A DNA stretch of 64,000 nucleotides from positions 21,117-85,116 of the forward strand of contig CAIOPG010000006.1 in assembly GCA_903860135.1 (NCBI GenBank), read 5' to 3'. The number at the start of each line of letters is the position of its first letter. Positions within the stretch are counted from its first letter, which is position 1. Shown here in pieces: positions 189 to 62,909 of this stretch. Source of the DNA: Candidatus Omnitrophota bacterium. Lineage in GTDB: Bacteria; Omnitrophota; Gorgyraeia; Zapsychrales; Fredricksoniimonadaceae. The notes under the pieces were generated by a model, which did not search any database, was not told the origin of the DNA, and saw only the letters and a program-made list of their open reading frames with translations. Made by a program: the position numbers and the translations under genes.

Positions 189-284
189 TTTTTTCTTTTT
201 ACACAGCCATATTTTTAAGTTATGGTATTTTATTCCAGATGATCGGTCATAACCGTTCACGGATAACCATTAGGGAGGGTTGAT

Positions 285-1131: not shown

Positions 1132-1718
1132 TGCGCCGGGGCGGGTTTACGTTCATTGAGGTTATGCTGGTTTCGGCACTGTTCGCGATCCTTTCTGTTT
1201 CGATCTTCAAGTGCCTGCTCGATGGCATCAGACTTTCTGCACGGGCGAAGCAAATGATGTCCGGCGAGGATTCCGTACTTTTGTTCGACCGCCTGTCCTC
1301 TGATCTTCGCAACACATTCTTTTTTTCAAATATAGATTTTTCCGGTGATGAATTAAGCGTGGCATTTCCCTGCGTTATCTGGACACCGGCTGACCGCGTG
1401 AGCCTGCGCGCCGGGGAAGGCGTTGTTGACCAGATTGGCCGGGTTTCTTATGTTTATGATCCTTTCAAGGAAACGCTGGTGCGTCGTCAGGCCAATTATT
1501 CCCAGGCGCTGGCCGGCACCTGGGGACTCGATGAAGTGATGGTCGCCGGCGTTAAATCATTCCGGTTGCGATATTATTTCAAAGCCTCGCCGGAGCCTTC
1601 CACCCATGTCGCGGCGGCAGACGGTATCCCGTCAGGTGTTGAGCTTGAGTTGTCTGTGGTGGCCACGGACGGGACAAAGGTATTCAAACGTTATGTGGCT
1701 GTTCCGGCGGGGGTATAG
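1131..1718 (+). CDS. Minor pseudopilin (GspJ-like)
   Basis: N-terminus MRRGGFTFIEVMLVSALFAILSV. ATG 1131 overlaps the stop of the upstream gene (TGATG). Confidence 0.6.
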   Translation: MRRGGFTFIEVMLVSALFAILSVSIFKCLLDGIRLSARAKQMMSGEDSVLLFDRLSSDLRNTFFFSNIDFSGDELSVAFPCVIWTPADRVSLRAGEGVVDQIGRVSYVYDPFKETLVRRQANYSQALAGTWGLDEVMVAGVKSFRLRYYFKASPEPSTHVAAADGIPSGVELELSVVATDGTKVFKRYVAVPAGV

Positions 1719-2741: not shown

Positions 2742-2796
2742 TCAATTTTATGTTGATGCCCTTTAAAGACATAGTCTATAATGTTCGCAACAAAGA

Positions 2797-4293: not shown

Positions 4294-4909
4294 ATTTATT
4301 TCCGGGCTTTCTTCAAATGAACGCAAGATACTTACGGTCGCGTCCTTGTTTGTTCTTTTTGCTCTTTTCGACAGGCTTCTGGTGGGGCCTTCGTTGGGCC
4401 GGATGAAAGAACTCGACGAAAGCATCGCCAAAGAAGAAGATACTGTCCGCAGGAATCTTCGTTTTCTGGGTTACAAGGAGCGCATTGTCGGGCAAGCGGC
4501 CGCTTTCCGTGATTTCTATACGCAAGAGGTGCGCAGTGAAGATGAGGTTATTGCGGATTTCCTGAAAAAGATGGAAGGCATGGGATCGCAGGCGCAGGTT
4601 ACCTTGTCGAAGATATCGCCTGCCGGTCAGGAAGCGCAGAAGGATTATATCAAATATTTTGTGACCATGGATTGTACGGGCAAGCTTGAGAATCTCATGA
4701 CTCTTGTCTATACGATCAACAATGCGCAGGAATTGATCAAAGTTGAGAAAGTCAGTTTTTCCGGCAATTCGCGCGGAGCTGATACCGTCCAGGCTAACCT
4801 GACGGTTTCCAAAATGATCATCGGCGTAGATCCTTCCGTCGAAGCCAAAGCCCTTGTGCATGAAAAAGAGGTTGTCAAGGCCGAGGTCAACGCGGACATG
4901 GCAAAATGA
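4283..4909 (+). CDS. GspM/PilO-like bitopic inner-membrane assembly protein
   Basis: N-terminal TM helix and about 180 aa periplasmic domain. Overlaps the upstream gene by 11 nt. Called by context; direct similarity is weak. Confidence 0.4.
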   Translation: MISKFISGLSSNERKILTVASLFVLFALFDRLLVGPSLGRMKELDESIAKEEDTVRRNLRFLGYKERIVGQAAAFRDFYTQEVRSEDEVIADFLKKMEGMGSQAQVTLSKISPAGQEAQKDYIKYFVTMDCTGKLENLMTLVYTINNAQELIKVEKVSFSGNSRGADTVQANLTVSKMIIGVDPSVEAKALVHEKEVVKAEVNADMAK

Positions 4910-5700
4910 TCCCCTTCTGGCACCGGGCTTTTGCCTTGTGCGTCCTTTTTTTATGGGTATCCTCTGTTTGTGTTTCTGCCCTTCCATTAAGCCGGGAACA
5001 GTTATTTCAGCTGGCCACCATCGCGGCGGGAGAACATCAATTCGAACGTGCCATTGAACTTTTTCAGAAGGTCATTGAGAAAGAGCCTGCGTTCGCGCCA
5101 GCTTATAACGGGATCGGGCTTGTTCATCAATCAGACGAGAATGGTTCGATGGCTGAAGCGCTCCGCTATTTCAGGCTCGCTGTTGACATAGATCCGCAAT
5201 ACATTGAAGGTTGGAATAATCTGGGGCGTACATATTATACCCAAGGGAGTTTTGTAGAAGCGGAGCAGGCTTTTTTGTCCTCACTGCGCCTGAAACCCGG
5301 GCAAACAGATATTGAATTTTCCCTGGGCTGGGATTATCTTCTGGGGCAGTCCCGTCCAGATGAGGCCATTGATTATTTTGATAAAGTGATCGCGCATCAG
5401 GATAATCCCATGATCTATTACGGGATGGGGCTGGCGAATCTCCTTAAAGGCGATCGGTTAAAAGTGATCGAGGCTGTGACGCAATTACGCCGCCACCAGC
5501 GGGAAGAACAGGCTGTCCGCCTTGAAACCATGCTCAGGGAAAATGTCCTGATCAATTCCAAACCGGGGTTGCCATTGGTGACGGGTACGAAAGAGGATGA
5601 GTCATTGTTTGATCGTCAGCTTAAAGAGCTTGAGGCTAAAGGGTATAATGGCCAGGGTAAGGAAGGTATCAAGGTTCGTCTGAAAGGACCTTTATTGTGA
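4906..5700 (+). CDS. Secreted TPR-repeat protein
   Basis: Signal peptide then TPR-like repeats (AYNGIGLVH..., GWNNLGRTYYTQGSFVEA...). ATGA overlap with the upstream gene. Confidence 0.55.
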   Translation: MIPFWHRAFALCVLFLWVSSVCVSALPLSREQLFQLATIAAGEHQFERAIELFQKVIEKEPAFAPAYNGIGLVHQSDENGSMAEALRYFRLAVDIDPQYIEGWNNLGRTYYTQGSFVEAEQAFLSSLRLKPGQTDIEFSLGWDYLLGQSRPDEAIDYFDKVIAHQDNPMIYYGMGLANLLKGDRLKVIEAVTQLRRHQREEQAVRLETMLRENVLINSKPGLPLVTGTKEDESLFDRQLKELEAKGYNGQGKEGIKVRLKGPLL

Positions 5701-6836
5701 AGAAGAACTTTATCGTCTGTGTTGCGCTGGGGACGCGTCCTGAGGCTATCAAGCTTGCGCCTGTGATCATGGCCTTGCGTGCCACCTCGGGGGTCACGGT
5801 GCGCGTGCTTGTCACGGGACAGCACCGTGTCATGATGGACGAGGCGCTGGCGGTGTTTGGCATCACCCCTGATCATGATCTGAATATTATGCGTAAAGGC
5901 CAGGCCCTGTTTGATGTCACCGCACGTATCCTTCAGGGGGTGCCGCGCGTCCTGGCGCAGGAACCGGTTGACCTGATGGTCGTTCAGGGGGACACGGCGA
6001 CCACCTTTGCCTGTGCCCTGGCGGCGTATTATCACCGTATCCCGGTGGCGCATGTTGAGGCGGGGTTACGGACGGGAGATAAATACAGGCCTTTTCCTGA
6101 AGAAGTAAATCGGCGTTTGACCGGTGTCCTAGCAGACCTTCATTTTCCGCCAACGCCGCAAGCAGAGCAGGCACTCTTGCGCGAAGGGGTTGCCCGTCAG
6201 CGGGTGATCATGACCGGCAATACGGTGGTCGATGCGCTTCGCCAGGCGGCCGTGGCCAAACAAGGTTTTACGCATCCGCTATTGAAGACACTCGATGCGT
6301 CTGGCCGCAAGCTGGTGCTGGTGACCTTGCATCGGCGGGAGAGTTTCGGTGATGGGTTGCGCCAGGTCCTGCTGGCCTTGCGGGATATCAGCGTACTGCC
6401 CGGCGTGGATGTGGTGTATCCGGTGCATTTGAATCCGCAGGTGCGCGCGCAGGTCAAGGAAACGCTGGCCGGCGGGAAGGTGCATCTCCTGGAACCTTTG
6501 ACGTATGATCAATTTATTCTTTTGATGAAGAAAGCGCGCGTGATCGTGACGGATTCAGGCGGTATTCAGGAAGAGGCTTGCGCGTTAAGAAAGCCGGTGC
6601 TTATCACCCGTGAGACAACGGAACGCCCGGAGGCTGTCGCGTCGGGGTTTGCGGAACTGCTTGGGTTTGACCGCCCCCGCATTACGGCTGCCGCTGAGCG
6701 ACTCCTGACAGATGAAAAATATTACCGTGAACGCACGCGCCATGTGAATCCTTTCGGTGACGGAAAAGCGTCTGTACGTATCGCCAAGGCGTGTTTGAGT
6801 TACCTTAAAGAAAATCAATCCCGAGGTAAAATATGA
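5697..6836 (+). CDS. wecB: UDP-N-acetylglucosamine 2-epimerase (non-hydrolysing)
   Basis: Motifs VALGTRPEAIKLAPV, VTGQHR, HVEAGLRT, DSGGIQEE. GTG start overlaps the TPR gene stop (GTGA). Confidence 0.9.
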   Translation: MKKNFIVCVALGTRPEAIKLAPVIMALRATSGVTVRVLVTGQHRVMMDEALAVFGITPDHDLNIMRKGQALFDVTARILQGVPRVLAQEPVDLMVVQGDTATTFACALAAYYHRIPVAHVEAGLRTGDKYRPFPEEVNRRLTGVLADLHFPPTPQAEQALLREGVARQRVIMTGNTVVDALRQAAVAKQGFTHPLLKTLDASGRKLVLVTLHRRESFGDGLRQVLLALRDISVLPGVDVVYPVHLNPQVRAQVKETLAGGKVHLLEPLTYDQFILLMKKARVIVTDSGGIQEEACALRKPVLITRETTERPEAVASGFAELLGFDRPRITAAAERLLTDEKYYRERTRHVNPFGDGKASVRIAKACLSYLKENQSRGKI

Positions 6837-7528
6837 TATCCATTGTCGTTCCTGCGTATAACGAAGAAGAGGTTATTGTGCGTTTCCTGGAAGCATGTGT
6901 CCGGGACATCCGGCGCGACCTGCCTTTTGAGATCGTGGTCGTCAATGACGGCAGCCGTGATAATACGCGTGAACTGGTGCGCGGGTTTACGGCCAAGTAC
7001 GCGTTCATCCGTCTCGTGGACCACGAGGTCAACCGTGGCCTGGGGAAGGCACTGGAAACCGGCATCGCGGCGGCGCGCGGGGATGTTATTGTCACCATGG
7101 ATTCAGACCTGACCCATCCGCCGGCCATGATCCGTGAATTGGCAGCCGGCCTCAAGGATGCGGATATCTGCATCGCATCACGTTATGTGAAAGGCGGCGG
7201 CATGAAGGATGTCCCTGCCTGGCGCGTGTGGGTCAGCCGTTTGGCGAACTATCTGTTCGATCTGATCTTCTGGACGAACATCAAGGATCTTTCTTCCGGT
7301 TTCAAGGCATACCGCGCCCAACATCTGAAGAAGGCGCCGATCATGTCCAACGGATTCGAGTGCCAGATGGAGATCATGCTTTATTTTATCAAGAACAAAC
7401 TGCGTTCGCGTGAAATCCCGCTCATGCTCAAGAACCGTGAATTTGGCACGTCCAAGTTCCAGTTTGTCAAGATGGGGATGAAGTATGTGCGCAGCCTCAA
7501 GCGTTTCCTCGTCTACCGCTGGTCATGA
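6833..7528 (+). CDS. GT2 polyprenyl-phosphate sugar synthase (DPM1/ArnC/GtrB-like)
   Basis: Motifs ISIVVPAYNEEE, VVNDGSRDNT, DSDLTHPP. ATGA overlap with wecB. Confidence 0.85.
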   Translation: MISIVVPAYNEEEVIVRFLEACVRDIRRDLPFEIVVVNDGSRDNTRELVRGFTAKYAFIRLVDHEVNRGLGKALETGIAAARGDVIVTMDSDLTHPPAMIRELAAGLKDADICIASRYVKGGGMKDVPAWRVWVSRLANYLFDLIFWTNIKDLSSGFKAYRAQHLKKAPIMSNGFECQMEIMLYFIKNKLRSREIPLMLKNREFGTSKFQFVKMGMKYVRSLKRFLVYRWS

Positions 7529-7529
7529 T

Positions 7530-9182
7530 ATGAACCGGCCTGTTTTTTCATGGTTGACGGTGAGATCTTTTCAGATCGGGCTTATTGCCCTCGGGTTGGT
7601 GTTGCGCTGCATTCATTACGTCGAGAACCGCTCGTTCTGGCAGGATGAGCTATGCCTGGCGCTGAGCATTGTCAACCGTTCGTTCACGGAAATATTCCAT
7701 AACACCCTTCTTTTTCCTGATTTTGCCCAAGCACCGCTGTTGTTTCAATTCATGGTAAAGATCTTTGCCGGTGTGTTCGGCAACAATGAAATGGCACTCC
7801 GGTTTTTTCCGTTTGTGACCGGGGTCGCCGCGCTTTTCCTTGCCCGGCGTTTTTTTAATCGCCTGCTGGCACCCATCCCTGCCACCCTGGCGCTAGGCCT
7901 TTTCGCCCTGGCCGAACCGCTTGTTTATTTTTCAGCAGAACTCAAACCGTACGGCGTTGATGTTTTTGCGGCGTTGTTGGTGTATGAAATGTTTTTTGCC
8001 TTGAAGGAACGCTGGACATTGCGGCATTTGGCTGTTTTTATGGCGGGTGGAGCCTTGGTGATCTGGCTGTCGAATGCCATGCTCTTTATTCTTGCCGGAG
8101 CAGGGCTTGTGTTCGGCCTTGATCATCTGAAGCGGCAGGAATGGTCTAAAGTGCGTCAGCTGGCGATGGCTTATGGTCTATGGCTGGTTAGTTTTTTAAT
8201 CTTGTACAAGGTTTCGTTGAGCGGGATGCTCAATCATGACCTGGTGAGGAACTGGCGTCTGGCAGGCGGGTTTTCGCCCGAACCTGCGTTCTCGTTGGGC
8301 TGGCTGGTGTGGATCGCCAAGGCTTTTCTGGATATGTTCCGTTCACCCTTAGGGCTCGGCTGGACGGGGTTGATGGCGGTCTTCTTCTTCTGCGGTTGCT
8401 GGTTTATTTATCGCCGGGACAGGTTGCTTCTGTGGCTATTAATGGCACCGCTCTTGCTGGTGTTGTCGGCTGGTGCTTTCGACAAGTACCCCTTCTTTGA
8501 ACGACTAGTTCTTTTCCTTGTGCCCGCCGTGCTTGTCATCCTAGCTGAGGGTGTCTGTGGCGTTGCTTTTTCCAGGGTCTGGCAGGGGCGGGCCTGGGGG
8601 TCATGGATCGTTATAGCCGCTGTCCTGTGGTATCCTGTGTCGGCGGCGGCCTGGCAGGCGGTGCATCCGCGCGGGCATGAAGATAACCGTGCGGCCATGC
8701 AGTACCTGACAGATCATTACCGCCCAGGTGACATGGTGGCGATAAGCCCTCAAGCCCAGTATCCATTCTGGTATTACAGCCAGCGCATGGGGCTCACCAG
8801 CCGTTTGCCGATGCATCCGGCGGGGGCATCGGGAGAGCGCGTGACACCCGTGATCCAGCTGTTTCCTGATATTGTGCCTGAATCTGGGCAGGAGATGCTC
8901 GCGTTGCGCCAGACCCTCAGTGTGTATGATGCCGCCGGTTATTATCGTTCTTTCCGGCTGGCTGGGCGCTCGAGTGCCCCTTTGTTTGTCCCCGCGGCAT
9001 CGCCCGCGATCCTCAAAGGCATGGGCCGGGTATGGGTCTTCTTGTCGCATCACAATAATGCCCGTTACCCGTTATTTGTGGATCAGGTGTTTTCACGTGC
9101 CGGAGAGCGGCTGGATTACTTCGAACGGCCTGGTGTTTGTGTTGGCCTTTATGACGTTCCTTTGGCCGATAAGAAAAAGTAA
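7530..9182 (+). CDS. Polytopic GT-C glycosyltransferase of the ArnT/PMT (COG1807-like) family with a C-terminal periplasmic domain
   Basis: More than 10 predicted TM helices. A QDE motif lies in the first loop after TM1. Sits 1 nt after the GT2 stop. ATG at the MNRP codon was chosen over the upstream in-frame ATG at 7485, which overlaps the GT2 gene. Confidence 0.6.
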   Translation: MNRPVFSWLTVRSFQIGLIALGLVLRCIHYVENRSFWQDELCLALSIVNRSFTEIFHNTLLFPDFAQAPLLFQFMVKIFAGVFGNNEMALRFFPFVTGVAALFLARRFFNRLLAPIPATLALGLFALAEPLVYFSAELKPYGVDVFAALLVYEMFFALKERWTLRHLAVFMAGGALVIWLSNAMLFILAGAGLVFGLDHLKRQEWSKVRQLAMAYGLWLVSFLILYKVSLSGMLNHDLVRNWRLAGGFSPEPAFSLGWLVWIAKAFLDMFRSPLGLGWTGLMAVFFFCGCWFIYRRDRLLLWLLMAPLLLVLSAGAFDKYPFFERLVLFLVPAVLVILAEGVCGVAFSRVWQGRAWGSWIVIAAVLWYPVSAAAWQAVHPRGHEDNRAAMQYLTDHYRPGDMVAISPQAQYPFWYYSQRMGLTSRLPMHPAGASGERVTPVIQLFPDIVPESGQEMLALRQTLSVYDAAGYYRSFRLAGRSSAPLFVPAASPAILKGMGRVWVFLSHHNNARYPLFVDQVFSRAGERLDYFERPGVCVGLYDVPLADKKK

Positions 9183-50705: not shown

Positions 50706-52067
50706 ATGAACAGAAACATACAGCTCGAACTTGAAGATAAGTTGCTCGACAAGATTAAAGGTCGCCTTCATGTCATCCAGCTTGACCATGAGCGTGCGGA
50801 GATAGCTTTTGCTGCTCTGGAGAGTGTGCTGATCAATGATAAATCCCGCCGGTTCTCCAATGAGTTTGCCGACACAGAGGCCAAGCATATTTTTGTCCGT
50901 GAGTTTCTTTCTTACGGTATTATTGAAAAACTTTTGTGTGACACCGATGTTGAGGATATTATCATCAACTCCCTTCAGCCTATTTATATCCATCATGCCC
51001 AGAACGGGTTTATTGAAGCCGGCATAAAGTTTTTGAATATACGCGAGCTTAATCTTTTCATCAAGAAACTCATTATTTTTGCTAATCGTGATTCCATGAA
51101 GAGGGTGATCGATCTGGAGCTCGCTAATCTCGGCGGCCGGGCAAACATCATCACATCACCGTTTGGTGCCCAGATCACCATCACCAAGGCCAAGGTGGAT
51201 CCCATCAGCGTGATCGATCTCATCACACGCGGCACCCTGACTTACGAGGTGGCGGCTCAGTTATGGCTTTATGTGGATGGTTTGTCCATACGGCCGGCCA
51301 ATATTCTTCTGGCTGGCGGTCCCGGAACGGGGAAAACAACGTTGCTCAATGCCCTGTTCAGTTTCATTCCCGACAAGGATCACGTTGTTATCATTGAAGA
51401 CACCCTTGAACTCAATACCCTGCTGATGGACACGGTTTCCCGCCTCGAGAGTGATGATGAGCTGTCGCTGGCAGACCTGGTAAAAAACAGCCTGCGCATG
51501 CGTCCGGAACGTATTATTGTCGGCGAAGTCAGGGGCATTGAAGCCCGCGATATGATCACGGCCATGAATGTGGGAAAGTTTTGCATGTGCACCATACACG
51601 CCCTCACGGCGCGCGAGGCTATCATCCGTCTGCAGAGTGACCCGATGAATATCCCTGAAGCATTGATAAACCTGATCGATGTTTTTGTGGTGCTCAAGCG
51701 GTTTCATGTGGGGGGCAAGGTGTTCCGTGTGATCGACGAGGTGAGTGAAACCGGAGGGATGGAGCAGAAGAAGATACTGCTGTCGCCGATCTATAAATAC
51801 AATTACGAGCAGAACCGTATAACACAGATGTCGCCGAGCACGATCTATCGCGATAAGCTTTCCCGTGAAGCCGGCCTTAAGCCACGCGACATTATCAACG
51901 AAACGATCGTCCGCGCGCATGTACTTGAACGGCTGCACAGCCGTGGTGTATTTACGATTAAGGATGTGACCACTTTCTGCCGTGCTTATCGTCAAAATCC
52001 CGCCGATGCCATGGACCGTATCGGCCTCAATCGCCAGGCTCTTCTAAAAGAAGTCGAAAGGTTGTAG
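50706..52067 (+). CDS. Type II/IV secretion-system ATPase of the FlaI/CpaF/VirB11 family
   Basis: Walker A LLAGGPGTGKTT. Asp/Glu box VVIIEDTLEL. His box region. N-terminal domain. No adjacent TadB/C or pilin genes. Confidence 0.75.
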   Translation: MNRNIQLELEDKLLDKIKGRLHVIQLDHERAEIAFAALESVLINDKSRRFSNEFADTEAKHIFVREFLSYGIIEKLLCDTDVEDIIINSLQPIYIHHAQNGFIEAGIKFLNIRELNLFIKKLIIFANRDSMKRVIDLELANLGGRANIITSPFGAQITITKAKVDPISVIDLITRGTLTYEVAAQLWLYVDGLSIRPANILLAGGPGTGKTTLLNALFSFIPDKDHVVIIEDTLELNTLLMDTVSRLESDDELSLADLVKNSLRMRPERIIVGEVRGIEARDMITAMNVGKFCMCTIHALTAREAIIRLQSDPMNIPEALINLIDVFVVLKRFHVGGKVFRVIDEVSETGGMEQKKILLSPIYKYNYEQNRITQMSPSTIYRDKLSREAGLKPRDIINETIVRAHVLERLHSRGVFTIKDVTTFCRAYRQNPADAMDRIGLNRQALLKEVERL

Positions 52068-52095
52068 GCATTCCCATTCATTCTGGGGGCTTGTT

Positions 52096-53178
52096 ATGGC
52101 CAAATTATTAAGAAAATCCAACGCCAGGTCCAGATCGTCTGAGTCCTTGCATTATCAGGGCCAGCCAAGGCTGGGAGACGCAAAGATCACGGTTTTTGAT
52201 TATGATGCGGACAACTGTATTGAAAAAGTTGTTACGGACGTGGAAGCGTGTTTTCCTTTTCGGAATAAACCGACGGTAACATGGGTCAATGTGGACGGTT
52301 TGCATCAGACGGATATTCTTGAAAGACTGAGCCAAGGTTATTTGCTGCACCACCTTGTGCTTGAGGATATCCTGAACATTAATCAGCGCCCAAAGGCGGA
52401 AGATTTCGGGGAGTACATTTTCTTCGCCGCCAAGATGATGGAATATAACGAAGAAAGCGGCGAGATCACCGAAGAACAGGTGAGTATCATCCTGGGTGAT
52501 AATTTTGTTATCACGTTTCAGGAAGAGAAAGTGGGCGATGTCTTTGGTGATATTCGTCAGCGGTTGCGTGCCGGCAAGGGGCGGATCCGAAAAATGAAAG
52601 CGGATTATCTGGCGTACGCCATGCTCGACGCGATCGTGGACAATTACTTTGTGATCCTTGAAAAACTGGGCGAGAGGATTGAGTCTATCGAAGAACTCCT
52701 GGTTGATAAACCGGATCGGCAGACATTGCAGGCGATCAATCGTGTTAAACGCTCCCTGATTTTTCTGAGAAAATCTGTATGGCCGTTGCGCGAGGTTGCC
52801 CGCACCGTGACGCAGACCGAGTCGCCGCTTATTCGTCAGGAATCGCTGGCTTATTTTCGGGATATTCATGATCATATTATCCAAGCCGTGGACACCATCG
52901 AGGCTTTTCGTGATACGGTGTCGGGCATGTTGGACATTTACTTGTCGAGCCTGAGCCATCGGCTCAACGAGGTGATGAAGGTCTTGACGATCATTGCCAC
53001 GATCTTTATGCCGCTGACCTTTATTGCCGGGATATACGGAATGAATTTTAATACGCATGCTTCGGCCTGGAATATGCCTGAATTGAACTGGCCGTTGGGG
53101 TATCCTTTGGCCCTTGTTCTTATGCTGAGCATTGTTACGGGGATGGTTGTGTACTTTAAGAAAAAAAATTGGTTTTGA
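52096..53178 (+). CDS. corA: Magnesium/cobalt transporter CorA
   Basis: GMN motif (IAGIYGMNFN), two C-terminal TM helices, soluble N-domain. Confidence 0.9.
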   Translation: MAKLLRKSNARSRSSESLHYQGQPRLGDAKITVFDYDADNCIEKVVTDVEACFPFRNKPTVTWVNVDGLHQTDILERLSQGYLLHHLVLEDILNINQRPKAEDFGEYIFFAAKMMEYNEESGEITEEQVSIILGDNFVITFQEEKVGDVFGDIRQRLRAGKGRIRKMKADYLAYAMLDAIVDNYFVILEKLGERIESIEELLVDKPDRQTLQAINRVKRSLIFLRKSVWPLREVARTVTQTESPLIRQESLAYFRDIHDHIIQAVDTIEAFRDTVSGMLDIYLSSLSHRLNEVMKVLTIIATIFMPLTFIAGIYGMNFNTHASAWNMPELNWPLGYPLALVLMLSIVTGMVVYFKKKNWF

Positions 53179-53189
53179 CAGGAGGGATC

Positions 53190-54014
53190 ATGCTGAATTT
53201 CAAGGTTGATACGTCCACGTGCATCAATTGCGGCCTTTGCGCCAGCGATTGTCCGGCGAAGATCATTATGATGGGGGACAACGGTCCTGCGATCGCGACT
53301 GCGGATGAAGGGCGTTGTTACAGATGCCAACATTGCCTGGCGATTTGTCCGAAAGGGGCTGTTTCTATCCTGGGGGTTCTGCCATCAGCTTGCGCCCCTC
53401 TCGAAGGGAATCTGCCGTCAGCGGACCAGGTCGAAATCCTGATCAGGGGGCGTCGTACGGTACGCCGTTATCAGGATGAGAATCTTGATCCGGCTTTGAT
53501 CGCGCGGCTGCTGAATGTCGCCTGGCAGGGTGCTAGTGCCCGAAATGAGCGCAAGGTATTGCTGACGGTCATCGATGACCGCAAGGTCATGGAGGCTTTT
53601 CGCGCGGAGACGCTGGGCGCACTGGCACGCATGATCCGTGACAACAAGCTCCCGCCCGGACGCGAACGTTTCATTGATATTGTGGCGGCATGGGAAAACA
53701 AAAAGATCGATATTATATTTCGTGGTGCTCCACACCTCGTTGTGGCTTCTGCGCCTAAAACCTGCGCGACGCCCGAGGCAGATTGCCTGATCGCCTTGAC
53801 GACCTTCGAGCTCTTTGCCAGCAGCCTTGGTGTGGGTACGGTATGGTCGGGTATGTTGCAATGGGTTATGCTCGAGATATGGCCTGCCTTGAGGGGAAAA
53901 CTTGGGATACCGGAAGATCATGTGATAGGTTTTTCGATGGTCTTCGGGAAGCCGGCGGTAAAATACACCCGTACGGTGCGGCATGAGCCGGCCTGGATCG
54001 CGAGGGTTCATTGA
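53190..54014 (+). CDS. Ferredoxin-domain nitroreductase family protein
   Basis: Two Cys motifs CINCGLCASDCP and CYRCQHCLAICP, then a nitroreductase-like domain (RRTVRRY). Confidence 0.7.
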   Translation: MLNFKVDTSTCINCGLCASDCPAKIIMMGDNGPAIATADEGRCYRCQHCLAICPKGAVSILGVLPSACAPLEGNLPSADQVEILIRGRRTVRRYQDENLDPALIARLLNVAWQGASARNERKVLLTVIDDRKVMEAFRAETLGALARMIRDNKLPPGRERFIDIVAAWENKKIDIIFRGAPHLVVASAPKTCATPEADCLIALTTFELFASSLGVGTVWSGMLQWVMLEIWPALRGKLGIPEDHVIGFSMVFGKPAVKYTRTVRHEPAWIARVH

Positions 54015-54673
54015 CAGGGATGGTGCCTGGACAAATGACCCGGGGGCGCACACTAGATCACGCCGCGGCTGTTTATGATATTTTAAGCCCGCTCATGCTG
54101 TTGGGGCAGGAACAAATGATGGCGCGACCGTGCCTGAAATATCTGGAAGATCCGGTCATTCATGACGTGCTTGACCTGGGTTGCGGGACAGGCACGCTGA
54201 CGCTTGAGATCGCCAGGCTATTGACAGCCCGTTGCGGCCAGGTGGTGGGCATTGATGCCGCCCCGCGCATGATCGAGGTTGCCAGGAAGAAAGCCGGGAT
54301 TATCCGTAATGTCCGTTTTGACGTTGTGGCCGCCGAAGCACTGCCTTACCCGGATCAAAGTTTCGACCATGTCCTTTCCACTTTCTTTTTTCATCATATA
54401 GATATGGAACTTAAATTGCGCGCCATCGACGAAGCGTTCCGTGTGCTCAGGCCGGGCGGCTCGCTCATCATTGTTGATGTTGATGCCCCGACCAATCTTT
54501 TCGGGCGAGTTTGTGCCTGGGCAGGGTATTATCTCTTCAAGCAGGAAGAAATACGCGAGAATATTGAAGGCAAACTATGCCTGGCGGCCGAACGTTCAAG
54601 GTTCGGCGCTTTCAAGCGCCTGGCGCATTATCAAGGGTATGTATCGGTATTGCAATTGACCAAGGGTTTTTGA
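54011..54673 (+). CDS. Class I SAM-dependent methyltransferase
   Basis: Motif I VLDLGCGTGTLT and post-motif LRPGGSLIIVD. Confidence 0.8.
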   Translation: MTGMVPGQMTRGRTLDHAAAVYDILSPLMLLGQEQMMARPCLKYLEDPVIHDVLDLGCGTGTLTLEIARLLTARCGQVVGIDAAPRMIEVARKKAGIIRNVRFDVVAAEALPYPDQSFDHVLSTFFFHHIDMELKLRAIDEAFRVLRPGGSLIIVDVDAPTNLFGRVCAWAGYYLFKQEEIRENIEGKLCLAAERSRFGAFKRLAHYQGYVSVLQLTKGF

Positions 54674-54724: not shown

Positions 54725-54825
54725 GTTTTCGTCATTATTTTCTCAAATTAGATTAGTTGTCATTCGCCCAAAAAAATTTGGCTGAAAGAAATTTTCTTTC
54801 AAGTTATTTAATAAAAGGGGAAGAT

Positions 54826-56436
54826 ATGGTACAAAAAACGCTAACCTTTCGCTGGATCTCAATCTGGGTTTTGGTGAGTTTTCTGGCCACCGCCGTGATC
54901 CCGCCCAAAGTGTACGCGCAGGCACTGAACCTGCCGGCGCCCGGGGCTATGGTGGGGTTGACCCCGGCGTATGTGCCGATCCTGATGAAGGGCGTGCGGG
55001 TGCATCCCGAGAATCCGCTTCTTTTTGATTTTATTGTGGACAGCGGGAAATCAAATTTTAAAGCAGAAAGCCCGGCGTTCAAGGCGGAGTCACAGAAGCT
55101 CATCAAGTATTTCTTGGCGTCGTTGACCATCAAGGAAGAAGATCTTTGGGTTAATTTAAGCCCGTATGAAAACAACCGCATCATCCCGCAGGTACTGGGC
55201 AAGACCGAGATGGGCCGCGATATGCTGGCGCAGGATTATATCCTCAAGCAATTGACCGCTTCGCTTATATATCCCGAGAAGGACCTGGGCAAGGCGTTCT
55301 GGAACCGGATCTACACCAAAGCCAAGGAACAGTTTGGCACAACCGATATCCCGGTCGATACCTTTAACAAAGTCTGGATTACCTCCGACAAGGCAAAAGT
55401 CTTTGAACGCAACAATGTCGCTTATATCGTCGGCGCGCACCTGAAAGTCATGCTCGAATCCGATTATCAAGCTGCGCAGGCTGTTGGCGTGCGTACAGGT
55501 GATCCTGTTATCACACCCGCCCCCGCCGCAGTGTGGAGAGGGCAAGGGAGGGGGGCGTCAGAAGAACTTGCCAAACAGGTCATCCGCGACGTCGTCATCC
55601 CCGAGATCGAAAAAGAAGTCAACGAAGGCCAGAATTTTGCAATGCTGCGCCAGATGTTCTATTCGATGATCCTCGCCTCTTGGTACAAGCTCGCTTTGAA
55701 AGATGCCCTGTTGAATCAGGTGTACAGTAATAAAGATAAAACCAGCGGGGTTCTCTCCGATGACCCGGCGGTAGCCACCAAGATCTACGAACAGTACCTG
55801 CAGGCGTATAAGAAAGGCGTGTTCGATTACATCAAAGAAGATATGGACGCTGTCACCCATGACCCTCTGCCCAGAAAGTATTTCTCGGGGGGGGTCGTTG
55901 ATTTGGCTAGCAAGGTGGAAGTTGAACGTCAGTCGGGTCGTTTGAATCTGACGGAAAATACCCAGCTCATATCTTCAGTATTCCTTTTGATGGTAAAGTT
56001 TTCGTCGGTGTTGGGAGGGCGTCTTTCATTGGCCAAACATTTGTCTTTGGTTGCGCTGATGACGGGTCTGTTCGCATGTCAGCCTGCTGTCCAGCCTCCG
56101 GCTGATCTTTTCTATGATTTAAGTAATTCCGACTTGATTACTTACCCTATTCAACTTGCGCCTGCCGATGCTACAAGGGTCTTTGTTCCCTTCAAGGTGG
56201 ATCATTCTGCGGATGTCGGTGGTATCGCGCTCAATGGGAAGCTGATGGACTTGGATGTGGCCAAAGACGGGAAGGGCGTTGAGATGAAATTCGATCCGAT
56301 CATGGTGGCGGAGTTTCAGCGGGGAAATTTTACGGGGGTTGAGGGGGTTATCCTCAATATTGTTCCGATGGTCAGCCCCTTATCGTTGTTGGGTCTGGAT
56401 AAAGCTTCGGTGGAGTTGGTGTCGGCCAAAGGGTGA
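54826..56436 (+). CDS. Secreted protein of the same uncharacterised paralogous family (paralog B, 559 aa)
   Basis: Signal peptide ending VYAQA. N-terminal about 300 aa are highly similar to the 11259 gene, with nucleotide identity around 70-80% in conserved blocks. The C-terminal tail is also similar. The gene is 31 nt upstream of tpsA. Confidence 0.8.
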   Translation: MVQKTLTFRWISIWVLVSFLATAVIPPKVYAQALNLPAPGAMVGLTPAYVPILMKGVRVHPENPLLFDFIVDSGKSNFKAESPAFKAESQKLIKYFLASLTIKEEDLWVNLSPYENNRIIPQVLGKTEMGRDMLAQDYILKQLTASLIYPEKDLGKAFWNRIYTKAKEQFGTTDIPVDTFNKVWITSDKAKVFERNNVAYIVGAHLKVMLESDYQAAQAVGVRTGDPVITPAPAAVWRGQGRGASEELAKQVIRDVVIPEIEKEVNEGQNFAMLRQMFYSMILASWYKLALKDALLNQVYSNKDKTSGVLSDDPAVATKIYEQYLQAYKKGVFDYIKEDMDAVTHDPLPRKYFSGGVVDLASKVEVERQSGRLNLTENTQLISSVFLLMVKFSSVLGGRLSLAKHLSLVALMTGLFACQPAVQPPADLFYDLSNSDLITYPIQLAPADATRVFVPFKVDHSADVGGIALNGKLMDLDVAKDGKGVEMKFDPIMVAEFQRGNFTGVEGVILNIVPMVSPLSLLGLDKASVELVSAKG

Positions 56437-56467: not shown

Positions 56468-59400
56468 ATGCTGAGACATATCATCAAAAGCTTATTGGGC
56501 ATATGGTGTTTGATCCTGGGGTTGACTTGTTGTGCATTGGCAGAACCGCCACAGGTTAAGGTTGTTGACGGTGACGGCACTCTTTCCCAGACGCAGGCTC
56601 CTGCGGCATCGACAACGGATTTTACGGTGTCAGGTCATATTGTAGGTGAAACCAGCCGGGCCGACATTCTTCCTGATGAGACGTGGAATGTACGCTTTTC
56701 AAATCCAAACGACAGCTTTCTTCTTCGTGTCCTTGACCCTTCGGGTACACGCATTCTTGGGAACTTGAATATTTATTACGGGAGCTTTGTCCTGTTGAAC
56801 ACCCATGGGATCGATATAGGCGCGTTGGCGAGGGTGAATGTCAATCATGCTGTTTTTGTTGCCTCGACGATCGACATTCAAAATCGTGATTTCATAGCGG
56901 GGAAGTATGCTTTTGATGCTGCGCACGGAGCCGCCAACAGAACTGTAGTTAACCACGGTTTGATCAGGACAATGGGTTCCAGTTCGGTCGTTTTGTTGGG
57001 TCAGGCCGTTGAGAATGCAGGGGTGATTGAGGCGCCACTCAGCAAGGTTGCGCTAGCCGCTGGTGATGCCGTGACATTGAGCCTCGATGCCAATGGGTTG
57101 ATCGGTGTGGAGGTCGCGGATCCGGTGAAAAGCAAGGTCCTTGACGGGGATGGCCGTGAGGTCGCCGCGCAGGTTGCCAATACGGGGACGATCACCGCCG
57201 ATGGCGGGACTGTGTTGATTAGCGCCAGGTCCTTGAATGATGTTTTCAACCGCAGCGTGAACCTTGAGGGGCGTATTCAGGCTAATCAGGCCCTGCAAGG
57301 TGCTGACGGCACCATCAGGATCGTGGCTTCGGATAAAATTGTTAATACGGGCGTGCTGGCAACGCGCAACGGCAAGCTTTATCTTACCAGTGACGGCGCG
57401 ATAGAAACGTCGGGGCATCTGGCGGCCGGGACGCTGGTGGAGCAAGGGGCGTCATGGCGCATGGGCGGTGAGGTGCAGGTCGGGACGGCCAGCATGGACA
57501 ATGCCGACGGCGCCGCGGTTTTGAGTACGGGCAGTTATACCGGGACGTTTGAGGATTCCGGCGATATCATTGTTGACAACGACGCCCGTATCACGCTGAC
57601 CGGTGCGACCGTGTTTGGGGCGGACACGGATCCCGGGACGCAGGCCCATGATGGCAACGGCATTTTCACCATGAACACCGGGTCTTCGATCATCGGCGGG
57701 GGGCATGCCTTGACGCTGTATTCCGCCGACAGGGATTCCGCCGGGGGAGCGGCGTCGTCGGTCCTTCGCGATATCAGCGGGGTCAACGGGTTGAACCTTT
57801 ATCGTTCTTCGGCGGCAACGGCCAGTCCTGCCTATACGCTGCGTGGAACCCTGGACGCAGGGGCGTACAATCTGGACATCGACGGGGATATTGTCTTGGA
57901 TCCAGGAGGCGCGTTGACCAATGCGGCTGATATTTTTATCACGGGTAACTGGACTAATAACGGTGGCACGTTCACGCCAGGGGCGAGCAGGGTGAATTTT
58001 ATCAGCACCATAGCGGATCAGCTGATCAACGGGACTGCCGTGGCACAGGTGTTTTATGACATCAGGGTGGCCAAGGGCAGTAAGACGTTAAGCGTGGGGG
58101 GCAGTACAACGGCATTGTCCTTGCACGACTTGGCCTTGGACAGTGGCATTTTCGCGACGGGGACGGCAACGACGGTCAATGTGGCGGGCAATGTGGTCTT
58201 TAATTCATTGGCAGTGACCGGATTTAATGGATTAACGCTCGATGCCGACACGTTCACGGCCAACGATGTGGTCAATATGATCGGCAACACGGCGCGCACC
58301 TATTACCCGGTTACGGATGCCGTGCTTGATGCGATGATCGCCGGCAGTCAGGTCAAGACCTTGATCATCGGCGTGCCGTATGACCAGGATGCATATGGCT
58401 GGCTGGCCAATTACTGGGGCGGCAGTGTCCCCGTCGGGACGAACCGCGTGAATATGGTTGATCGTAATTATGTTGCGTACATCGCGCATGTGAAGGACAG
58501 GATCGCCTCGGCGGGTTCAAGCCTGAAGCTTATCGTCGAGTTTGGTAATGAGTATAACCTCCATCCGGAGTGGTTTGGCGGTGATAGCCGGAACTGGTTC
58601 TCGGCGTTGACGGCGGCGGTCAGTGCTGTTCACGCGGCCTTCGGCAACAGTGTCAGGGTTTCAACAGCCACAGGTGATATTCCAGCAGATTTTGTGACGA
58701 CCATCCGGACTGGTGTTGACCTCGTTGGCGTGAACACTTATCGTGGGTTGGGCAACACCAGTTCGCTGGTAGCTGATTGGAATACGGCATGCTCTCTGAC
58801 GGGGATGGCGACACCTCTTTATGTCTCTGAATCGGGGTTCCCCTCGTGGGTCTGGGATGGTGGAGAGGCACAGCAGGACATCAATGTTCTTTCGTTGCGT
58901 GATGAGTTCCTGAAGAACAATCTTGGCATAACGTTCATGAGTTTTGAAGATAACATGAGGAAGGGCGGCTCGTTGTTTACCCAGGATTCACGTGAAGATT
59001 ATTGGGGATGGTTGCGCGCCAACGGGACGCATAAGGCGGTGTATGACACCATGTCGGCCGCTTGGGCATTGCCGGAGTTTCAGGCCGGGGCGGCGCATAT
59101 TAATGTTGCCGGTGACTGGGTCAATAACGGTGGCACATTTACCGCGGGCACAAGCACGGTGACGTTCGATGCGTCCAATGCCGGACACATCGTTAAATCC
59201 GGGACGTCGGCGTTTGCGGATGTTGTTTTTGACGATGGGGGCAAAGGCGGAGCTTGGACAGTAGCGACGGATCCCATGCAGGTCAACGGGAATTTGTCGC
59301 TGACCAGTGGCCATGTGACCCTTGGCATGAAGCTTATGGTTGGGGGCAATCTTGACATTGTCAACGCCACACTCGATGCGGTGGGTAAGACCATTGAACT

Positions 59401-59965
59401 TGCGGGGGACTGGCGCAATGCTGGACTTTTTATCCACGGGAATAATACTGTGACGCTCACCGGAGATGACCAGACGGTAGCAGGGGACAATACTTTCTAT
59501 AATTTGACCAAGACAAGTGCTAAAGGATCGGCACTGACTTTTGAGGCTGGATCTGTGCAGGCGATCGCGGGGGCACTGACATTAACAGGGTGTTCGGATG
59601 TTTACATGCGCTTGCGTTCGGACGTTCCCGGGAAGCAGTGGAAGATGCGTGCGGCTTCGGTTGATATGCAATGGCTTGACTTGAAGGACTCCTGGAATAC
59701 TGGAGACGATATCACGCCTTTGAATTTTCTGGATAGTGGCAATAATACAGGTTATGCCTTTGATCCTGATTATCCTGCTTTATCGACGGGTATTTTCCGT
59801 TTGGATGTCCTAGATATTCATGGGTTGACGTTTAATCTGGCTGTTGCACATGAGGCTCGTCTTGCGGCGCAGTTTCTGGGGTCATCCTTGATAGAAATGG
59901 ATGTGCCGTTTCCGGGAACTCCGCCCGTTATGTTTGGTTTATCCCATAAGTTCATGGTTGAATAA
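56468..59965 (+). CDS. Two-partner secretion exoprotein (TpsA/filamentous-haemagglutinin-like) with an internal GH-A-clan-like glycoside hydrolase segment
   Basis: Signal peptide. TPS-domain-like N-terminus (SNPNDSFLLRVLDPSGTRILGNLNIYYGSFVLLNTHGIDIGALARVNVNHAVFVASTIDIQNRDF). Gly/Thr/Asn-rich beta-helix-like repeats. An internal segment has VEFGNEYN (acid/base-like) and LYVSESGFPSW (nucleophile-like). Confidence 0.7.
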   Translation: MLRHIIKSLLGIWCLILGLTCCALAEPPQVKVVDGDGTLSQTQAPAASTTDFTVSGHIVGETSRADILPDETWNVRFSNPNDSFLLRVLDPSGTRILGNLNIYYGSFVLLNTHGIDIGALARVNVNHAVFVASTIDIQNRDFIAGKYAFDAAHGAANRTVVNHGLIRTMGSSSVVLLGQAVENAGVIEAPLSKVALAAGDAVTLSLDANGLIGVEVADPVKSKVLDGDGREVAAQVANTGTITADGGTVLISARSLNDVFNRSVNLEGRIQANQALQGADGTIRIVASDKIVNTGVLATRNGKLYLTSDGAIETSGHLAAGTLVEQGASWRMGGEVQVGTASMDNADGAAVLSTGSYTGTFEDSGDIIVDNDARITLTGATVFGADTDPGTQAHDGNGIFTMNTGSSIIGGGHALTLYSADRDSAGGAASSVLRDISGVNGLNLYRSSAATASPAYTLRGTLDAGAYNLDIDGDIVLDPGGALTNAADIFITGNWTNNGGTFTPGASRVNFISTIADQLINGTAVAQVFYDIRVAKGSKTLSVGGSTTALSLHDLALDSGIFATGTATTVNVAGNVVFNSLAVTGFNGLTLDADTFTANDVVNMIGNTARTYYPVTDAVLDAMIAGSQVKTLIIGVPYDQDAYGWLANYWGGSVPVGTNRVNMVDRNYVAYIAHVKDRIASAGSSLKLIVEFGNEYNLHPEWFGGDSRNWFSALTAAVSAVHAAFGNSVRVSTATGDIPADFVTTIRTGVDLVGVNTYRGLGNTSSLVADWNTACSLTGMATPLYVSESGFPSWVWDGGEAQQDINVLSLRDEFLKNNLGITFMSFEDNMRKGGSLFTQDSREDYWGWLRANGTHKAVYDTMSAAWALPEFQAGAAHINVAGDWVNNGGTFTAGTSTVTFDASNAGHIVKSGTSAFADVVFDDGGKGGAWTVATDPMQVNGNLSLTSGHVTLGMKLMVGGNLDIVNATLDAVGKTIELAGDWRNAGLFIHGNNTVTLTGDDQTVAGDNTFYNLTKTSAKGSALTFEAGSVQAIAGALTLTGCSDVYMRLRSDVPGKQWKMRAASVDMQWLDLKDSWNTGDDITPLNFLDSGNNTGYAFDPDYPALSTGIFRLDVLDIHGLTFNLAVAHEARLAAQFLGSSLIEMDVPFPGTPPVMFGLSHKFMVE

Positions 59966-59985: not shown

Positions 59986-61746
59986 ATGCGCAAAGGAATG
60001 TGGGTAATAGTTGTCATCGGATTTTGGGTGTTTTTGGTCAATGCCAGCGGAGAACTATTTGCCGCTGTCCCTGACATTGAACAGGCGAGTCAGTCTTCCG
60101 TTATAGGGAAACGTGTCCCTCAGGGGATTGAAAAGGCCATGGATGATGTCCAAGCTACGTTTAAATCCAGGATGATCAAAGAGGCACTGGATGCCGTAGA
60201 ATCTGCGTTGCAAGGTGCTTCGCCTAAGGCTCTGCCGCTTGTTCCGGATAACAACGGGGTTTCTTTTTTTGTCAGGAAGGTGCAGGTGAAAGATTCGCAG
60301 TTGTTGACAGAGACTTCCCTGGCGCCTTTGCTTGAGCCTTTTGAGGGCCACCAGCAGACGATTCGGGCGATGCAGGGTCTTGCAGATATGATCACGGCTG
60401 AGTACCGCAAGCGCGGATACCTGAGCAGCCAGGCCTATATTGCGCCTCAAGAAATAGCGGATGGCGTCTTTACGGTTTCTGTGCTCGAGGGGCGTATCGG
60501 TCGGGTCATTTTCGAAGGGAACAAGCATTATTCCACAGAGGTGCTCAGTCGTTACTGCGTTATCCATGAAGGGGATTTCTTCCGTTACCAGAAATTGCAG
60601 GAATCCGTCTTTAAGCTCAATGCGCACCCTGACAGGGTTGTTCGGGCGATCATCCGTCGAGGCAGTGCCCTCGGGCAGACGGATATTATCTTTAAGGTTG
60701 ATGAAAACAAATTGTTGGCGTCAAACCTTTTGATGGATAACCGCGGCTCGAAGCCTGTCGGTCAGCATCGTGGTGGGCTAGGCTTGCGCCGTGACAATCT
60801 GTTTGGGCAGGATGATACCCTGCGCATGGGCACCATGATCGGGAAGGCGTTCAGCTCGGGATTTGTGGAGCATGCCTTGCCCATTCAAGCGTTGGGTTCC
60901 GTCTGGAAAACAGGGGTTAGTATGGCCAAGTCCGCACCCCGGAAGCAATACAAGCCTTATCGGGTCAGCAGTACTTCCATGGATTACTGGGGCAGGCTCG
61001 AGACTAGGTTTATTACCACAGAAAGCCTTGCCCTAGATTGGCGCACAGGGATGGATATTAAAGAGAGCCGCACCATGGTGCTCTCTGGGACAGACAGCCG
61101 TGAACGGCTTAGGGTTATCCGCTTCGGGCCTACGCTGACCCTGCGCGATGACGGTGGCATGACGGTGATCGATGATCAGTTCTCGCTCGGACTTAATGCG
61201 ATGGGGGCGGTGCTGAGTAGCGGGTCTTCGCAGCGGGCAGGAGTAACACCGGCTTTCTTTGCTTCGGACTTCAGCCTTGAGCGCCTACAGCGGATGCCGC
61301 TGAAGACGCGGTTATCTTTAAAGGGAAGATCGCATTTGTCGGGTGATAAACAGCCGGCGTCAGAACAAATGCTCTTGGGCGGGGCGGACACGGTGCGCGG
61401 GTATCCTGAAGGAGACTATTTTGCTGATCAGGGTGTGTTGATGAATGCGGAATATTTGGTGCCGTTTTTTTTCATTCCTGATGCATGGAAGATGCCAGGC
61501 ACAAAGAACCGTATGCGTGATGCGCTTGATTTTGCGTTTTTTTATGATCATGGCCTCGGTTGGGTGAAGTCTCCGGTCAACGGCCAGAAAGCGTCGACGA
61601 GCTTGCGCGGAACGGGTGTTGGCGTGCGCGTACGTATGGCGGCTGATGTTTACTTTACCATGGATCTTGCCTACGCTATTGGTGCCAAGCCTGATCTGAG
61701 CGACAATCATTTCAGGATCCACTCCGCCATACAAGCTAATTTCTAG
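59986..61746 (+). CDS. TpsB (ShlB/FhaC family) outer-membrane transporter
   Basis: Signal peptide. POTRA-like region then a 16-strand barrel-like C-terminal domain ending ...IQANF. Immediately downstream of the TpsA. Confidence 0.8.
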   Translation: MRKGMWVIVVIGFWVFLVNASGELFAAVPDIEQASQSSVIGKRVPQGIEKAMDDVQATFKSRMIKEALDAVESALQGASPKALPLVPDNNGVSFFVRKVQVKDSQLLTETSLAPLLEPFEGHQQTIRAMQGLADMITAEYRKRGYLSSQAYIAPQEIADGVFTVSVLEGRIGRVIFEGNKHYSTEVLSRYCVIHEGDFFRYQKLQESVFKLNAHPDRVVRAIIRRGSALGQTDIIFKVDENKLLASNLLMDNRGSKPVGQHRGGLGLRRDNLFGQDDTLRMGTMIGKAFSSGFVEHALPIQALGSVWKTGVSMAKSAPRKQYKPYRVSSTSMDYWGRLETRFITTESLALDWRTGMDIKESRTMVLSGTDSRERLRVIRFGPTLTLRDDGGMTVIDDQFSLGLNAMGAVLSSGSSQRAGVTPAFFASDFSLERLQRMPLKTRLSLKGRSHLSGDKQPASEQMLLGGADTVRGYPEGDYFADQGVLMNAEYLVPFFFIPDAWKMPGTKNRMRDALDFAFFYDHGLGWVKSPVNGQKASTSLRGTGVGVRVRMAADVYFTMDLAYAIGAKPDLSDNHFRIHSAIQANF

Positions 61747-62354: not shown

Positions 62355-62909
62355 ATGCTGGTACTTTTGGTCATTCTAGGGTTGGTGGTGCTCGCGATTA
62401 TAACGGTGAGCGGAGTGTACAATGCGCTTGTTCAGTTGCGTGTGAGCGTGCAGAATGCATGGTCGCAGATCGATGTCCAGCTCAAACGGCGGCATGACCT
62501 GATCCCGAATCTTGTGGAAACGGCCAAGGGGTATATGGCGCACGAGCGCGCTACGCTGGAGAATGTTATCAAGGCCCGTCAGATGGCGGTCGATGCCGGA
62601 TCATTGAAAGACAAGGTCGCGGCGGAAAATATGCTCACCTCAACTTTAAGAAGCTTGATGGCTGTTTCTGAAAATTATCCGAACCTCAAGGCGGATCAGA
62701 CCATGTTGCGCCTGCACGAAGAATTGACCGCGACCGAGAACAAGATCGGGTTTGCGCGCCAGTATTACAACGACGAGGTGAATCGGTTAAATATCGCGGT
62801 ACAGGCTTTCCCTTCTAATATGATTGCCTCCCAGTTCGGGTTTAAGTCGGGCGAATTCTTTCAGGTGGAAGTTCCCGAAGAACGTCAGGCACCTCAGGTG
62901 AAGTTCTAG
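62355..62909 (+). CDS. lemA: LemA family protein
   Basis: N-terminal TM helix then VSGVYNALVQLRVSVQNAWSQIDVQLKRRHDLIPNLVETAKGYMAHE, a typical LemA sequence. Confidence 0.85.
   Translation: MLVLLVILGLVVLAIITVSGVYNALVQLRVSVQNAWSQIDVQLKRRHDLIPNLVETAKGYMAHERATLENVIKARQMAVDAGSLKDKVAAENMLTSTLRSLMAVSENYPNLKADQTMLRLHEELTATENKIGFARQYYNDEVNRLNIAVQAFPSNMIASQFGFKSGEFFQVEVPEERQAPQVKF

Follow-up and report, generated by a model that had tools for sequence, protein, structure and literature searches.

The passengers of two-partner secretion (TPS) and other type V systems are described in two reviews (one of them PMC5422565) as adhesins, cytolysins, proteases, lipases or esterases, contact-dependent inhibition (CDI) toxins and haem-acquisition proteins, and the protease LepA and the CDI toxins are evidence that TpsA exoproteins are able to carry enzymes. 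Neither "glycosidase" nor "glycoside" occurs in the text of these two reviews, and no example came up when the full text of the literature was searched for TpsA combined with "glycoside hydrolase". A candidate for this missing class was examined in a stretch of 64,000 nt (hereafter the window) of contig CAIOPG010000006.1, assembly GCA_903860135.1, from a Candidatus Omnitrophota bacterium. The product of its tpsA gene carries an embedded glycoside-hydrolase (GH) domain, and the gene of the cognate transporter, tpsB, follows directly. An earlier note on this DNA had said that a glycosidase module in a TpsA would be unusual.

The preferred reading, to which a probability of about 0.65 was given, is a type Vb pair whose exoprotein has a catalytically competent clan GH-A module between two beta-rich stalk stretches. 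The fold and homology of the module, the conservation of its catalytic residues, its insertion into the stalk and the tpsA-tpsB pairing are demonstrated below, and glycosidase activity of the domain is predicted and likely. The locus is classed as a canonical TPS pair whose cargo is of an unreported class and derives from a GH-A family without characterised members, of which it is a divergent representative. No new category is claimed, since enzyme-bearing type V passengers and glycosidase modules in large surface proteins are already known. The features on which this reading depends are the following (aa, residues of TpsA).

56468-59965, plus strand: tpsA, encoding a two-partner-secretion exoprotein of 1165 aa in which a glycoside-hydrolase domain is embedded, from the list of open reading frames (ORFs) and its translation.
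58217-59077, plus strand: clan GH-A-type (beta/alpha)8 glycoside-hydrolase domain, aa ~584-870.
58529-58558, plus strand: strand-4 motif LIVEFGNEYN, aa 688-697, with N694-E695 as predicted acid/base (E695 codon at 58550-58552).
58814-58864, plus strand: strand-7 motif PLYVSESGFPSW (PLYVSESGFPSWVWDGG, including PLYVSESG), aa 783-799, with E788 as predicted nucleophile (codon at 58829-58831).
59986-61746, plus strand: tpsB, an Omp85-type outer-membrane transporter of 586 aa, which starts 20 nt after tpsA.

The host protein of the GH segment is a TpsA, as the earlier note had it. When the N-terminal 343 aa were scanned alone, Pfam PF05860 was found above its cut-off (E 1.6e-11, 45 bits against 33.5), and a POTRA_2/ShlB gene lies immediately downstream; the scan of full-length TpsA returned nothing relevant and missed the TPS domain too. 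The Pfam domains of TpsB are POTRA_2 (2.5e-16), ShlB (2.9e-16), POTRA and Omp85. A TPS domain and an adjacent POTRA-bearing Omp85-family TpsB are both present, and tpsA and tpsB are a two-partner secretion (type Vb) pair. Genes for a TpsA with the GH domain were also found in two loci of Candidatus Omnitrophica metagenome-assembled genomes (L001 and L002, 72-73% identity) and in two metagenome loci (L005 and L006), and in all four tpsB lies directly 3' of tpsA, at 56-72% identity; the pairing is conserved.

The signal peptide, N-terminal TPS domain, beta-rich stalk and adjacent POTRA/ShlB TpsB are shared with FHA, HMW1, EtpA, HxuA and LepA. The differences are the internal, predicted (beta/alpha)8 glycosidase cargo of ~290 residues and the host, here an uncultured member of the Omnitrophota, whereas theirs are proteobacterial pathogens. 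Classical autotransporters with enzyme passengers (SPATE proteases, EstA esterase) are alike in that a globular enzyme, either borne by a beta-helical passenger or replacing it, is exported by an Omp85-type or autotransporter barrel. They are type Va systems with protease or lipase chemistry and an N-terminal enzyme, whereas the present protein is of type Vb with the putative enzyme in the middle of the stalk. The remaining parts of TpsA are listed below, with structure predicted by AlphaFold2 (AF2) and its confidence given as the predicted local distance difference test (pLDDT).

56468-56542, plus strand: Sec signal peptide, aa 1-25, MLRHIIKSLLGIWCLILGLTCCALA|EPPQ, with a predicted cut after ALA, from sequence inspection only.
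56558-58201, plus strand: N-terminal beta-rich stalk, aa 31-578, TPS domain included; AF2 all-beta, pLDDT mostly >85.
56687-57325, plus strand: TPS secretion domain, aa 74-286, Pfam PF05860, in which NTHGI replaces the NPNGI motif.
57944-58009, 59111-59176 and 59405-59470, plus strand: copies of the stalk repeat "GxW.N.G.F..G...V.F", starting at aa 493, 882 and 980.
59096-59671, plus strand: C-terminal beta-rich stalk, aa 877-1068, with "GxW.NxG..." repeats; AF2 all-beta.
59738-59962, plus strand: C-terminal tail, aa 1091-1165, poorly conserved and predicted disordered.

The AF2 model of the whole protein (mean pLDDT 77.9) was all-beta over aa 31-578, alternated between alpha and beta over aa 598-865, was all-beta again over aa 877-1068 and was disordered from aa 1103, with pLDDT <50 across aa 1103-1165. 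A helix was predicted at residues 2-20 of the N-terminus, and the "AEPPQ" junction of the signal peptide is kept in the alignment of orthologues. When this model was compared with known structures using Foldseek, the secretion domains of EtpA (2e-13), HMW1 and HxuA ranked first, matches to GH2 beta-glucuronidase and BuGH158 appeared from rank 9, and FHA (rank 15) and HpmA were lower; full-length EtpA and HxuA were also resembled. On these models, the passenger outside the GH segment is predicted to be beta-helical, as is characteristic of type Vb. The N-terminal stalk can be aligned with paralogous Omnitrophota TpsAs. The tail shares 27-50% identity with its orthologues, against 65-78% for the GH domain. 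Periplasmic retention, processing or a variable effector function are conceivable roles of the tail. A CDI-like toxin role was considered and found no support, as the tail has only ~75 aa, is predicted disordered and is encoded by a gene that tpsB follows directly; the ORF list of the window has nothing of 80 aa or more in the tpsA-tpsB gap.

The GH-A-like segment proposed in the earlier note (58290-59040, aa ~608-858) falls within the domain delimited here. Because no direct Pfam or PDB match was obtained for it, its homology was established via intermediate sequences. A search of the 274-aa segment against 5.8 billion sequences returned P0001 (E 1e-12) and P0002 (E 1e-11), whose identity of 27-29% extends across 97% of the query; these proteins, of ~435 aa each, are above the Pfam threshold for Glyco_hydro_2_C and end with a sorting domain of the type IX secretion system (T9SS). 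A follow-up profile search retrieved at least 1,617 clusters, mostly proteins of ~335 aa, of which the named ones are chiefly from marine Bacteroidota; these are annotated as "GH2 TIM barrel-domain containing" or "exo-beta-1,3-glucanase (GH17 family)", and are referred to below as the ~335-aa family. The eight closest relatives of the segment, which constitute the subtype of the TpsA module (hereafter the TpsA subtype), were aligned with this family by hhalign at 100% probability (E 6e-43, 231 columns). A profile built from 50 family sequences plus the window segment was then searched against the PDB, where it matched GH158 (9ORO, 8e-14; 6PAL), GH2 glucuronidases and galacturonidases (from 4e-11) and the Labilibaculum GH157 enzyme (9FZ9, 3e-10).

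Structure prediction of the segment, which the earlier note had suggested as a check, was carried out with AF2 on aa 575-880 and gave a TIM-barrel fold rather than a beta-helix (pLDDT 68, predicted template modelling score 0.74); nearly the same picture was obtained with Foldseek. On these results, aa ~584-870 form a predicted (beta/alpha)8 barrel of the clan GH-A type. With a glycosidase signal and a predicted barrel, the GH-A-like assignment of the earlier note stands.

The GH158 endo-beta-1,3-glucanases (BuGH158, PDB 6PAL; GH158(Pro), PDB 9ORO), which share with the TpsA domain the predicted clan GH-A barrel and retaining mechanism and an aligned GNE, are the best solved-structure match of the family-plus-window profile (E 8e-14) and a structural match in Foldseek. 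The match of the mixed profile spans strands 2-6 only, however, and the subtype-only profile gives none. In GH158 the barrel is followed by a C-terminal Ig-like domain (PMC13195107), whereas that of TpsA is followed by the beta-rich stalk; the TpsA domain does not qualify as a member of CAZy family GH158. Members of the ~335-aa family (e.g. P0015 and P0063) share 28-35% identity with the TpsA module and have GNEYNxHPEWF, NxYR, SExG and EEYWG in common with it. They are stand-alone or T9SS-tailed proteins, whereas the TpsA module is embedded in a stalk, and their longer strand-1 loop, the His in "TAHGE", the "DEWWK" of strand 8 and the long strand-8 loop are all altered in the TpsA module. The N-terminal sugar-binding and Ig-like domains of GH2 enzymes are absent from the surroundings of the segment.

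For the comparison of residues, the window sequence, six orthologues, a 40%-identical relative (L003) and 49 family members were used. The two motifs that the earlier note had singled out, an NE acid/base motif on strand 4 and a nucleophile-like motif on strand 7, are both in frame in tpsA; E695 and E788 are invariant, and their spacing of 93 residues is close to the ~90 given there. In the AF2 model, N694-E695 lies at the end of a predicted strand (687-694) and E788 within another (784-789). The strand-4 Asn-Glu is invariant in 8/8 subtype sequences and 49/49 family members, as is the strand-7 Glu in subtype and family. In profile alignments, the "GNE" of window and family was aligned with "LGNESE" of GH158, in which Glu143 is the acid/base and Glu229 the nucleophile (PMC13195107), and the "SE.G" strand with "ITEIG" of the GH2 enzyme 6NCW. 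Retained with respect to the family are R610 (strand 2), N694-E695, H699, W702, N756, Y758 (strand 6), E788, K832, E843 and W846; of the eight subtype sequences, most or all also have R610, N694, E695, H699, N756, Y758 and E788, and E695, E788, R610 and Y758 are invariant in the six orthologues and the 40%-identical relative. By alignment only, the strand-2 Arg (R610) and strand-6 Tyr (Y758) of clan GH-A are thus kept, with T/S at position 735, where the family has the strand-5/6 His, and Arg at position 831, where it has the strand-8 Trp. To judge from these alignments, the catalytic core is intact and its sugar-binding surroundings are remodelled. Two further features of the domain are the following.

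58229-58246, plus strand: probable strand beta1 "GLTLDA", aa 588-593, which aligns with "IRGVTL" / "IKGICY" of relatives.
58376-58471, plus strand: subtype-specific insertion of 32 residues after strand 3, aa 637-668, PYDQDAYGWLANYWGGSVPVGTNRVNMVDRNY.

Several of the results weigh against a competent glycosidase. The GH segment alone (274 aa) matched nothing in Pfam and only noise in PDB sequences, the profile of the eight closest relatives had no direct PDB sequence match, and Glyco_hydro_2_C (PF02836), whose threshold only the intermediate homologues pass, matched neither the segment nor a single subtype sequence of the eight when E values as high as 10 were admitted. Among the relatives retrieved, literature and database searches found no characterised enzyme of the ~335-aa family. 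At positions with at least 90% conservation in the family, the TpsA subtype has other residues (T/S for H735, R for W831, V for W753, L for W761 and P for D792). The loop "GxxPxxxGVPYD", which follows strand 8 in the family, has been deleted, and the ~335-aa family lacks the insertion after strand 3, which the orthologues and the L003 protein share. From these substitutions, the deletion and the insertion it follows that the sugar-binding subsites differ from those of every characterised relative. The pLDDT of the strand-1 region (aa 582-594) is below 50.

For this first strand, alignment by MAFFT with the ~335-aa family left ~40 residues unmatched at the start of the domain, and the hhalign alignment also begins at strand 2. 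In relatives of the module encoded by giant ORFs (see below), "Y.IRGVT[LV]" stands opposite the "FNGLTLD" of the window, in register with the "Y.IKGICY" of the family. On these motifs, strand 1 is probably aa 588-593, followed by a shortened loop, and the limits of the domain (aa ~584-870) were set accordingly, by sequence alignment only. A seven-stranded or truncated barrel had been considered, and was dropped after "NGLTLD" of the window matched the "IRGVTL" strand-1 motif of the giant-ORF relatives.

Six protein clusters, which are full or partial orthologues (P0270, P0271, P0143, P0155, P0272 and P0156; 56-74% identity), have the whole architecture, and the database orthologues have no Pfam annotation at all. 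The proportion of invariant columns is highest in the GH domain (48%), followed by the TPS domain (45%), the stalk (35-41%) and the C-terminal tail (12%). Alignments with paralogous Omnitrophica TpsAs, among them P0274 and P0273, cover aa 1-606 and resume at aa 877, to end at aa 1103 or 1126. Because they skip exactly the GH segment, this segment is an insertion into a pre-existing stalk. The stalk repeat "GxW.NNGGTF.PGTS.V.F" flanks the domain on both sides, and the repeats that follow it vary (none in P0156, ~250 extra residues in P0270, P0155 and P0272) while the GH domain remains constant. The GC content has no break at the domain borders, and no compositional signature of recent module transfer was seen.

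On the reading of a secreted glycosidase, and by analogy with established TPS biology (reviewed in PMC5422565), TpsA would be exported by the Sec system, and its TPS domain would then dock on the POTRA domains of TpsB. The unfolded chain would be threaded through the TpsB barrel and fold outside the cell, where the stalk would hold the (beta/alpha)8 domain of ~290 residues at the cell surface or further out. This domain may cleave or transfer a beta-glycosidic bond by retaining double displacement, in which E695 would be the acid/base and E788 the nucleophile. Such a domain would add polysaccharide cleavage to the functions of type V and two-partner secretion, and would show that a 290-residue TIM barrel can cross the TpsB pore and fold in the middle of a stalk.

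The main rival is a non-catalytic head: a glycosidase-like fold, catalytically dead or very weak, would act as the lectin-like tip of an adhesin which tethers the cell to a host or surface glycan. TpsAs are typically adhesins (PMC5422565), and the loss of several family-conserved subsite residues, the deleted strand-8 loop and the lack of a direct Pfam match are in keeping with such a role. We nevertheless consider it unlikely. Pseudo-enzymes usually lose at least one of the core catalytic residues, whereas here there is no variation, down to 40% identity, in the strand-2 Arg, the strand-4 Asn-Glu, the strand-6 Tyr or the strand-7 Glu, and constraint on the GH domain equals that on the TPS domain; this invariance of the core argues against a glycan-binding head.

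Clues to the substrate of such an enzyme come from the wider family. The family member P0063 of Labilibaculum antarcticum is encoded in a locus with three GH17 and two GH30 genes and transporters of the major facilitator superfamily, a make-up which is that of a beta-1,3/1,6-glucan utilisation locus. In this locus (L004:9001-12732), its gene stands between a GH30 and a GH17 gene and is followed by two Pfam-less ORFs of 323 and 549 aa; the latter, we presume, may be the GH157 enzyme of PDB 9FZ9 (537 aa). GH158 and GH157 are counted among the beta-1,3-glucan-degrading families (PMC13195107). Fusions were found in P0146 (2315 aa, with a 1,3-beta-glucan synthase domain), in P0151 (with GT2) and in P0130 (with CBM6/CBM35, Big_7 and a T9SS tail). 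By analogy, these observations hint weakly at beta-1,3-glucan chemistry for the wider family. Its extension to the TpsA subtype would be speculative, given the altered subsite residues, and it is no more than a weak guess that the substrate resembles beta-1,3-glucan or is another beta-linked polysaccharide, at the surface or in the extracellular material of a host, a prey or a biofilm matrix.

A sub-variant of the active reading is that the domain works mainly as a transglycosylase or glucan remodeller, similar to the GH17/GH72 glucanosyltransferases, on the glucan or matrix of the producer itself. Retaining enzymes of clan GH-A can transglycosylate, and the weak Pfam matches of some family members to GH72 (glucanosyltransferase) and the fusions with 1,3-beta-glucan synthase or GT2 would fit. 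These fusions, however, are found in distant family members, outside the TpsA subtype, and no glucan-synthesis genes lie beside tpsA/tpsB in the window, where the neighbours are CorA, nitroreductase, methyltransferase and LemA genes. This variant is given only a slim chance. That the motifs arose by chance in a beta-helical passenger, or that the fusion is an assembly chimera, is practically discounted: short NE and SE.G motifs do arise by chance in large proteins and the window is from uncultured organisms, but the homology (E 1e-12 and E 6e-43), the predicted TIM-barrel fold, the same architecture on at least six independent contigs of different assemblies and the absence of a compositional break at the borders all speak against it.

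The nearest relatives of the TpsA module are found in giant ORFs. In L003, a contig of a GTDB genome ("Bacterium isolate M55B113"), an ORF of >2964 aa (2-8893), open at both ends, contains a module which is 40% identical and has the same strand-3 insertion as the TpsA subtype, plus "FMSFEDNMRKGG". The protein encoded by this ORF has no Pfam domain, and its end is a run of hydrophobic, apparently membrane-spanning segments. Related modules were found in 11 metagenome loci (L007, L010-L012, L015, L019, L024, L025 and L027-L029), in ORFs of >2800-4270 aa which are open across the whole 8.5-12.8 kb read; the contigs are up to 309 kb long. A neighbour-joining tree, which carries no support values, grouped the TpsA modules with those of L003 and L010, then with other giant-ORF modules, apart from the stand-alone Bacteroidota enzymes. 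The L003 and L010 modules share with the TpsA module the strand 8 ("FMSFEDNMRKG" or "KDNRNKG") and the loop deletion.

Omnitrophota are uncultured, apparently host-dependent or predatory nanobacteria. Glycosyl-hydrolase domains within giant Omnitrophota proteins, and GH2-type genes beside them, have been described in preprints, where they were read as tools for the degradation of prey cell walls. Compared with these proteins (West-Roberts et al. 2023) and with the giant-ORF modules, the latter being the nearest relatives in the tree, TpsA differs in its host protein: the giant-ORF hosts are of >2800-4200 aa and have no TPS domain within the stretch read. A tie of the giant-ORF modules to Omnitrophota is suggestive only. 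A broader proposal would make the TpsA glycosidase a contact weapon, or an anchoring-and-drilling tool, of host-dependent or predatory Omnitrophota, which cuts a host or prey surface glycan and whose module has been exchanged with the giant predation-implicated proteins. We regard this proposal as doubtful. If it were true, type V secretion would gain glycan degradation as a further functional class, and tpsA/tpsB would be a small, expressible handle on the biochemistry of Omnitrophota attack on hosts. For the preferred reading of a TPS-exported glycosidase, the locus is of value mainly because it opens the surface enzymology of Omnitrophota to tests on a small system. The giant proteins with related modules are experimentally intractable, whereas a TpsA of 1165 aa with a single transporter is a small, clonable system, and its module belongs to a GH-A family which is large, with 1,600 clusters or more, and has no characterised member among the relatives retrieved.

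Upstream of tpsA, a 559-aa ORF (54757-56436, plus strand) ends 31 nt before the gene; it has an N-terminal hydrophobic segment and no Pfam match. Of its product, only a C-terminal motif of ~60 aa (GGI.L....LDL..K..GV...FDP.M...) recurs, at two places in L001. This ORF was considered as a third component of the system and rejected, being non-syntenic with tpsA in related loci, including L002. Further upstream (50706-54673) are genes for an ATPase of the type II secretion/type IV pilus kind (T2SSE), a CorA Mg2+ transporter, a ferredoxin-nitroreductase fusion and a class I methyltransferase, and a LemA gene lies downstream of tpsA/tpsB at 62355-62909. Almost all long ORFs of the window are on the plus strand, and for many of them the listed start codon is TTG or GTG.

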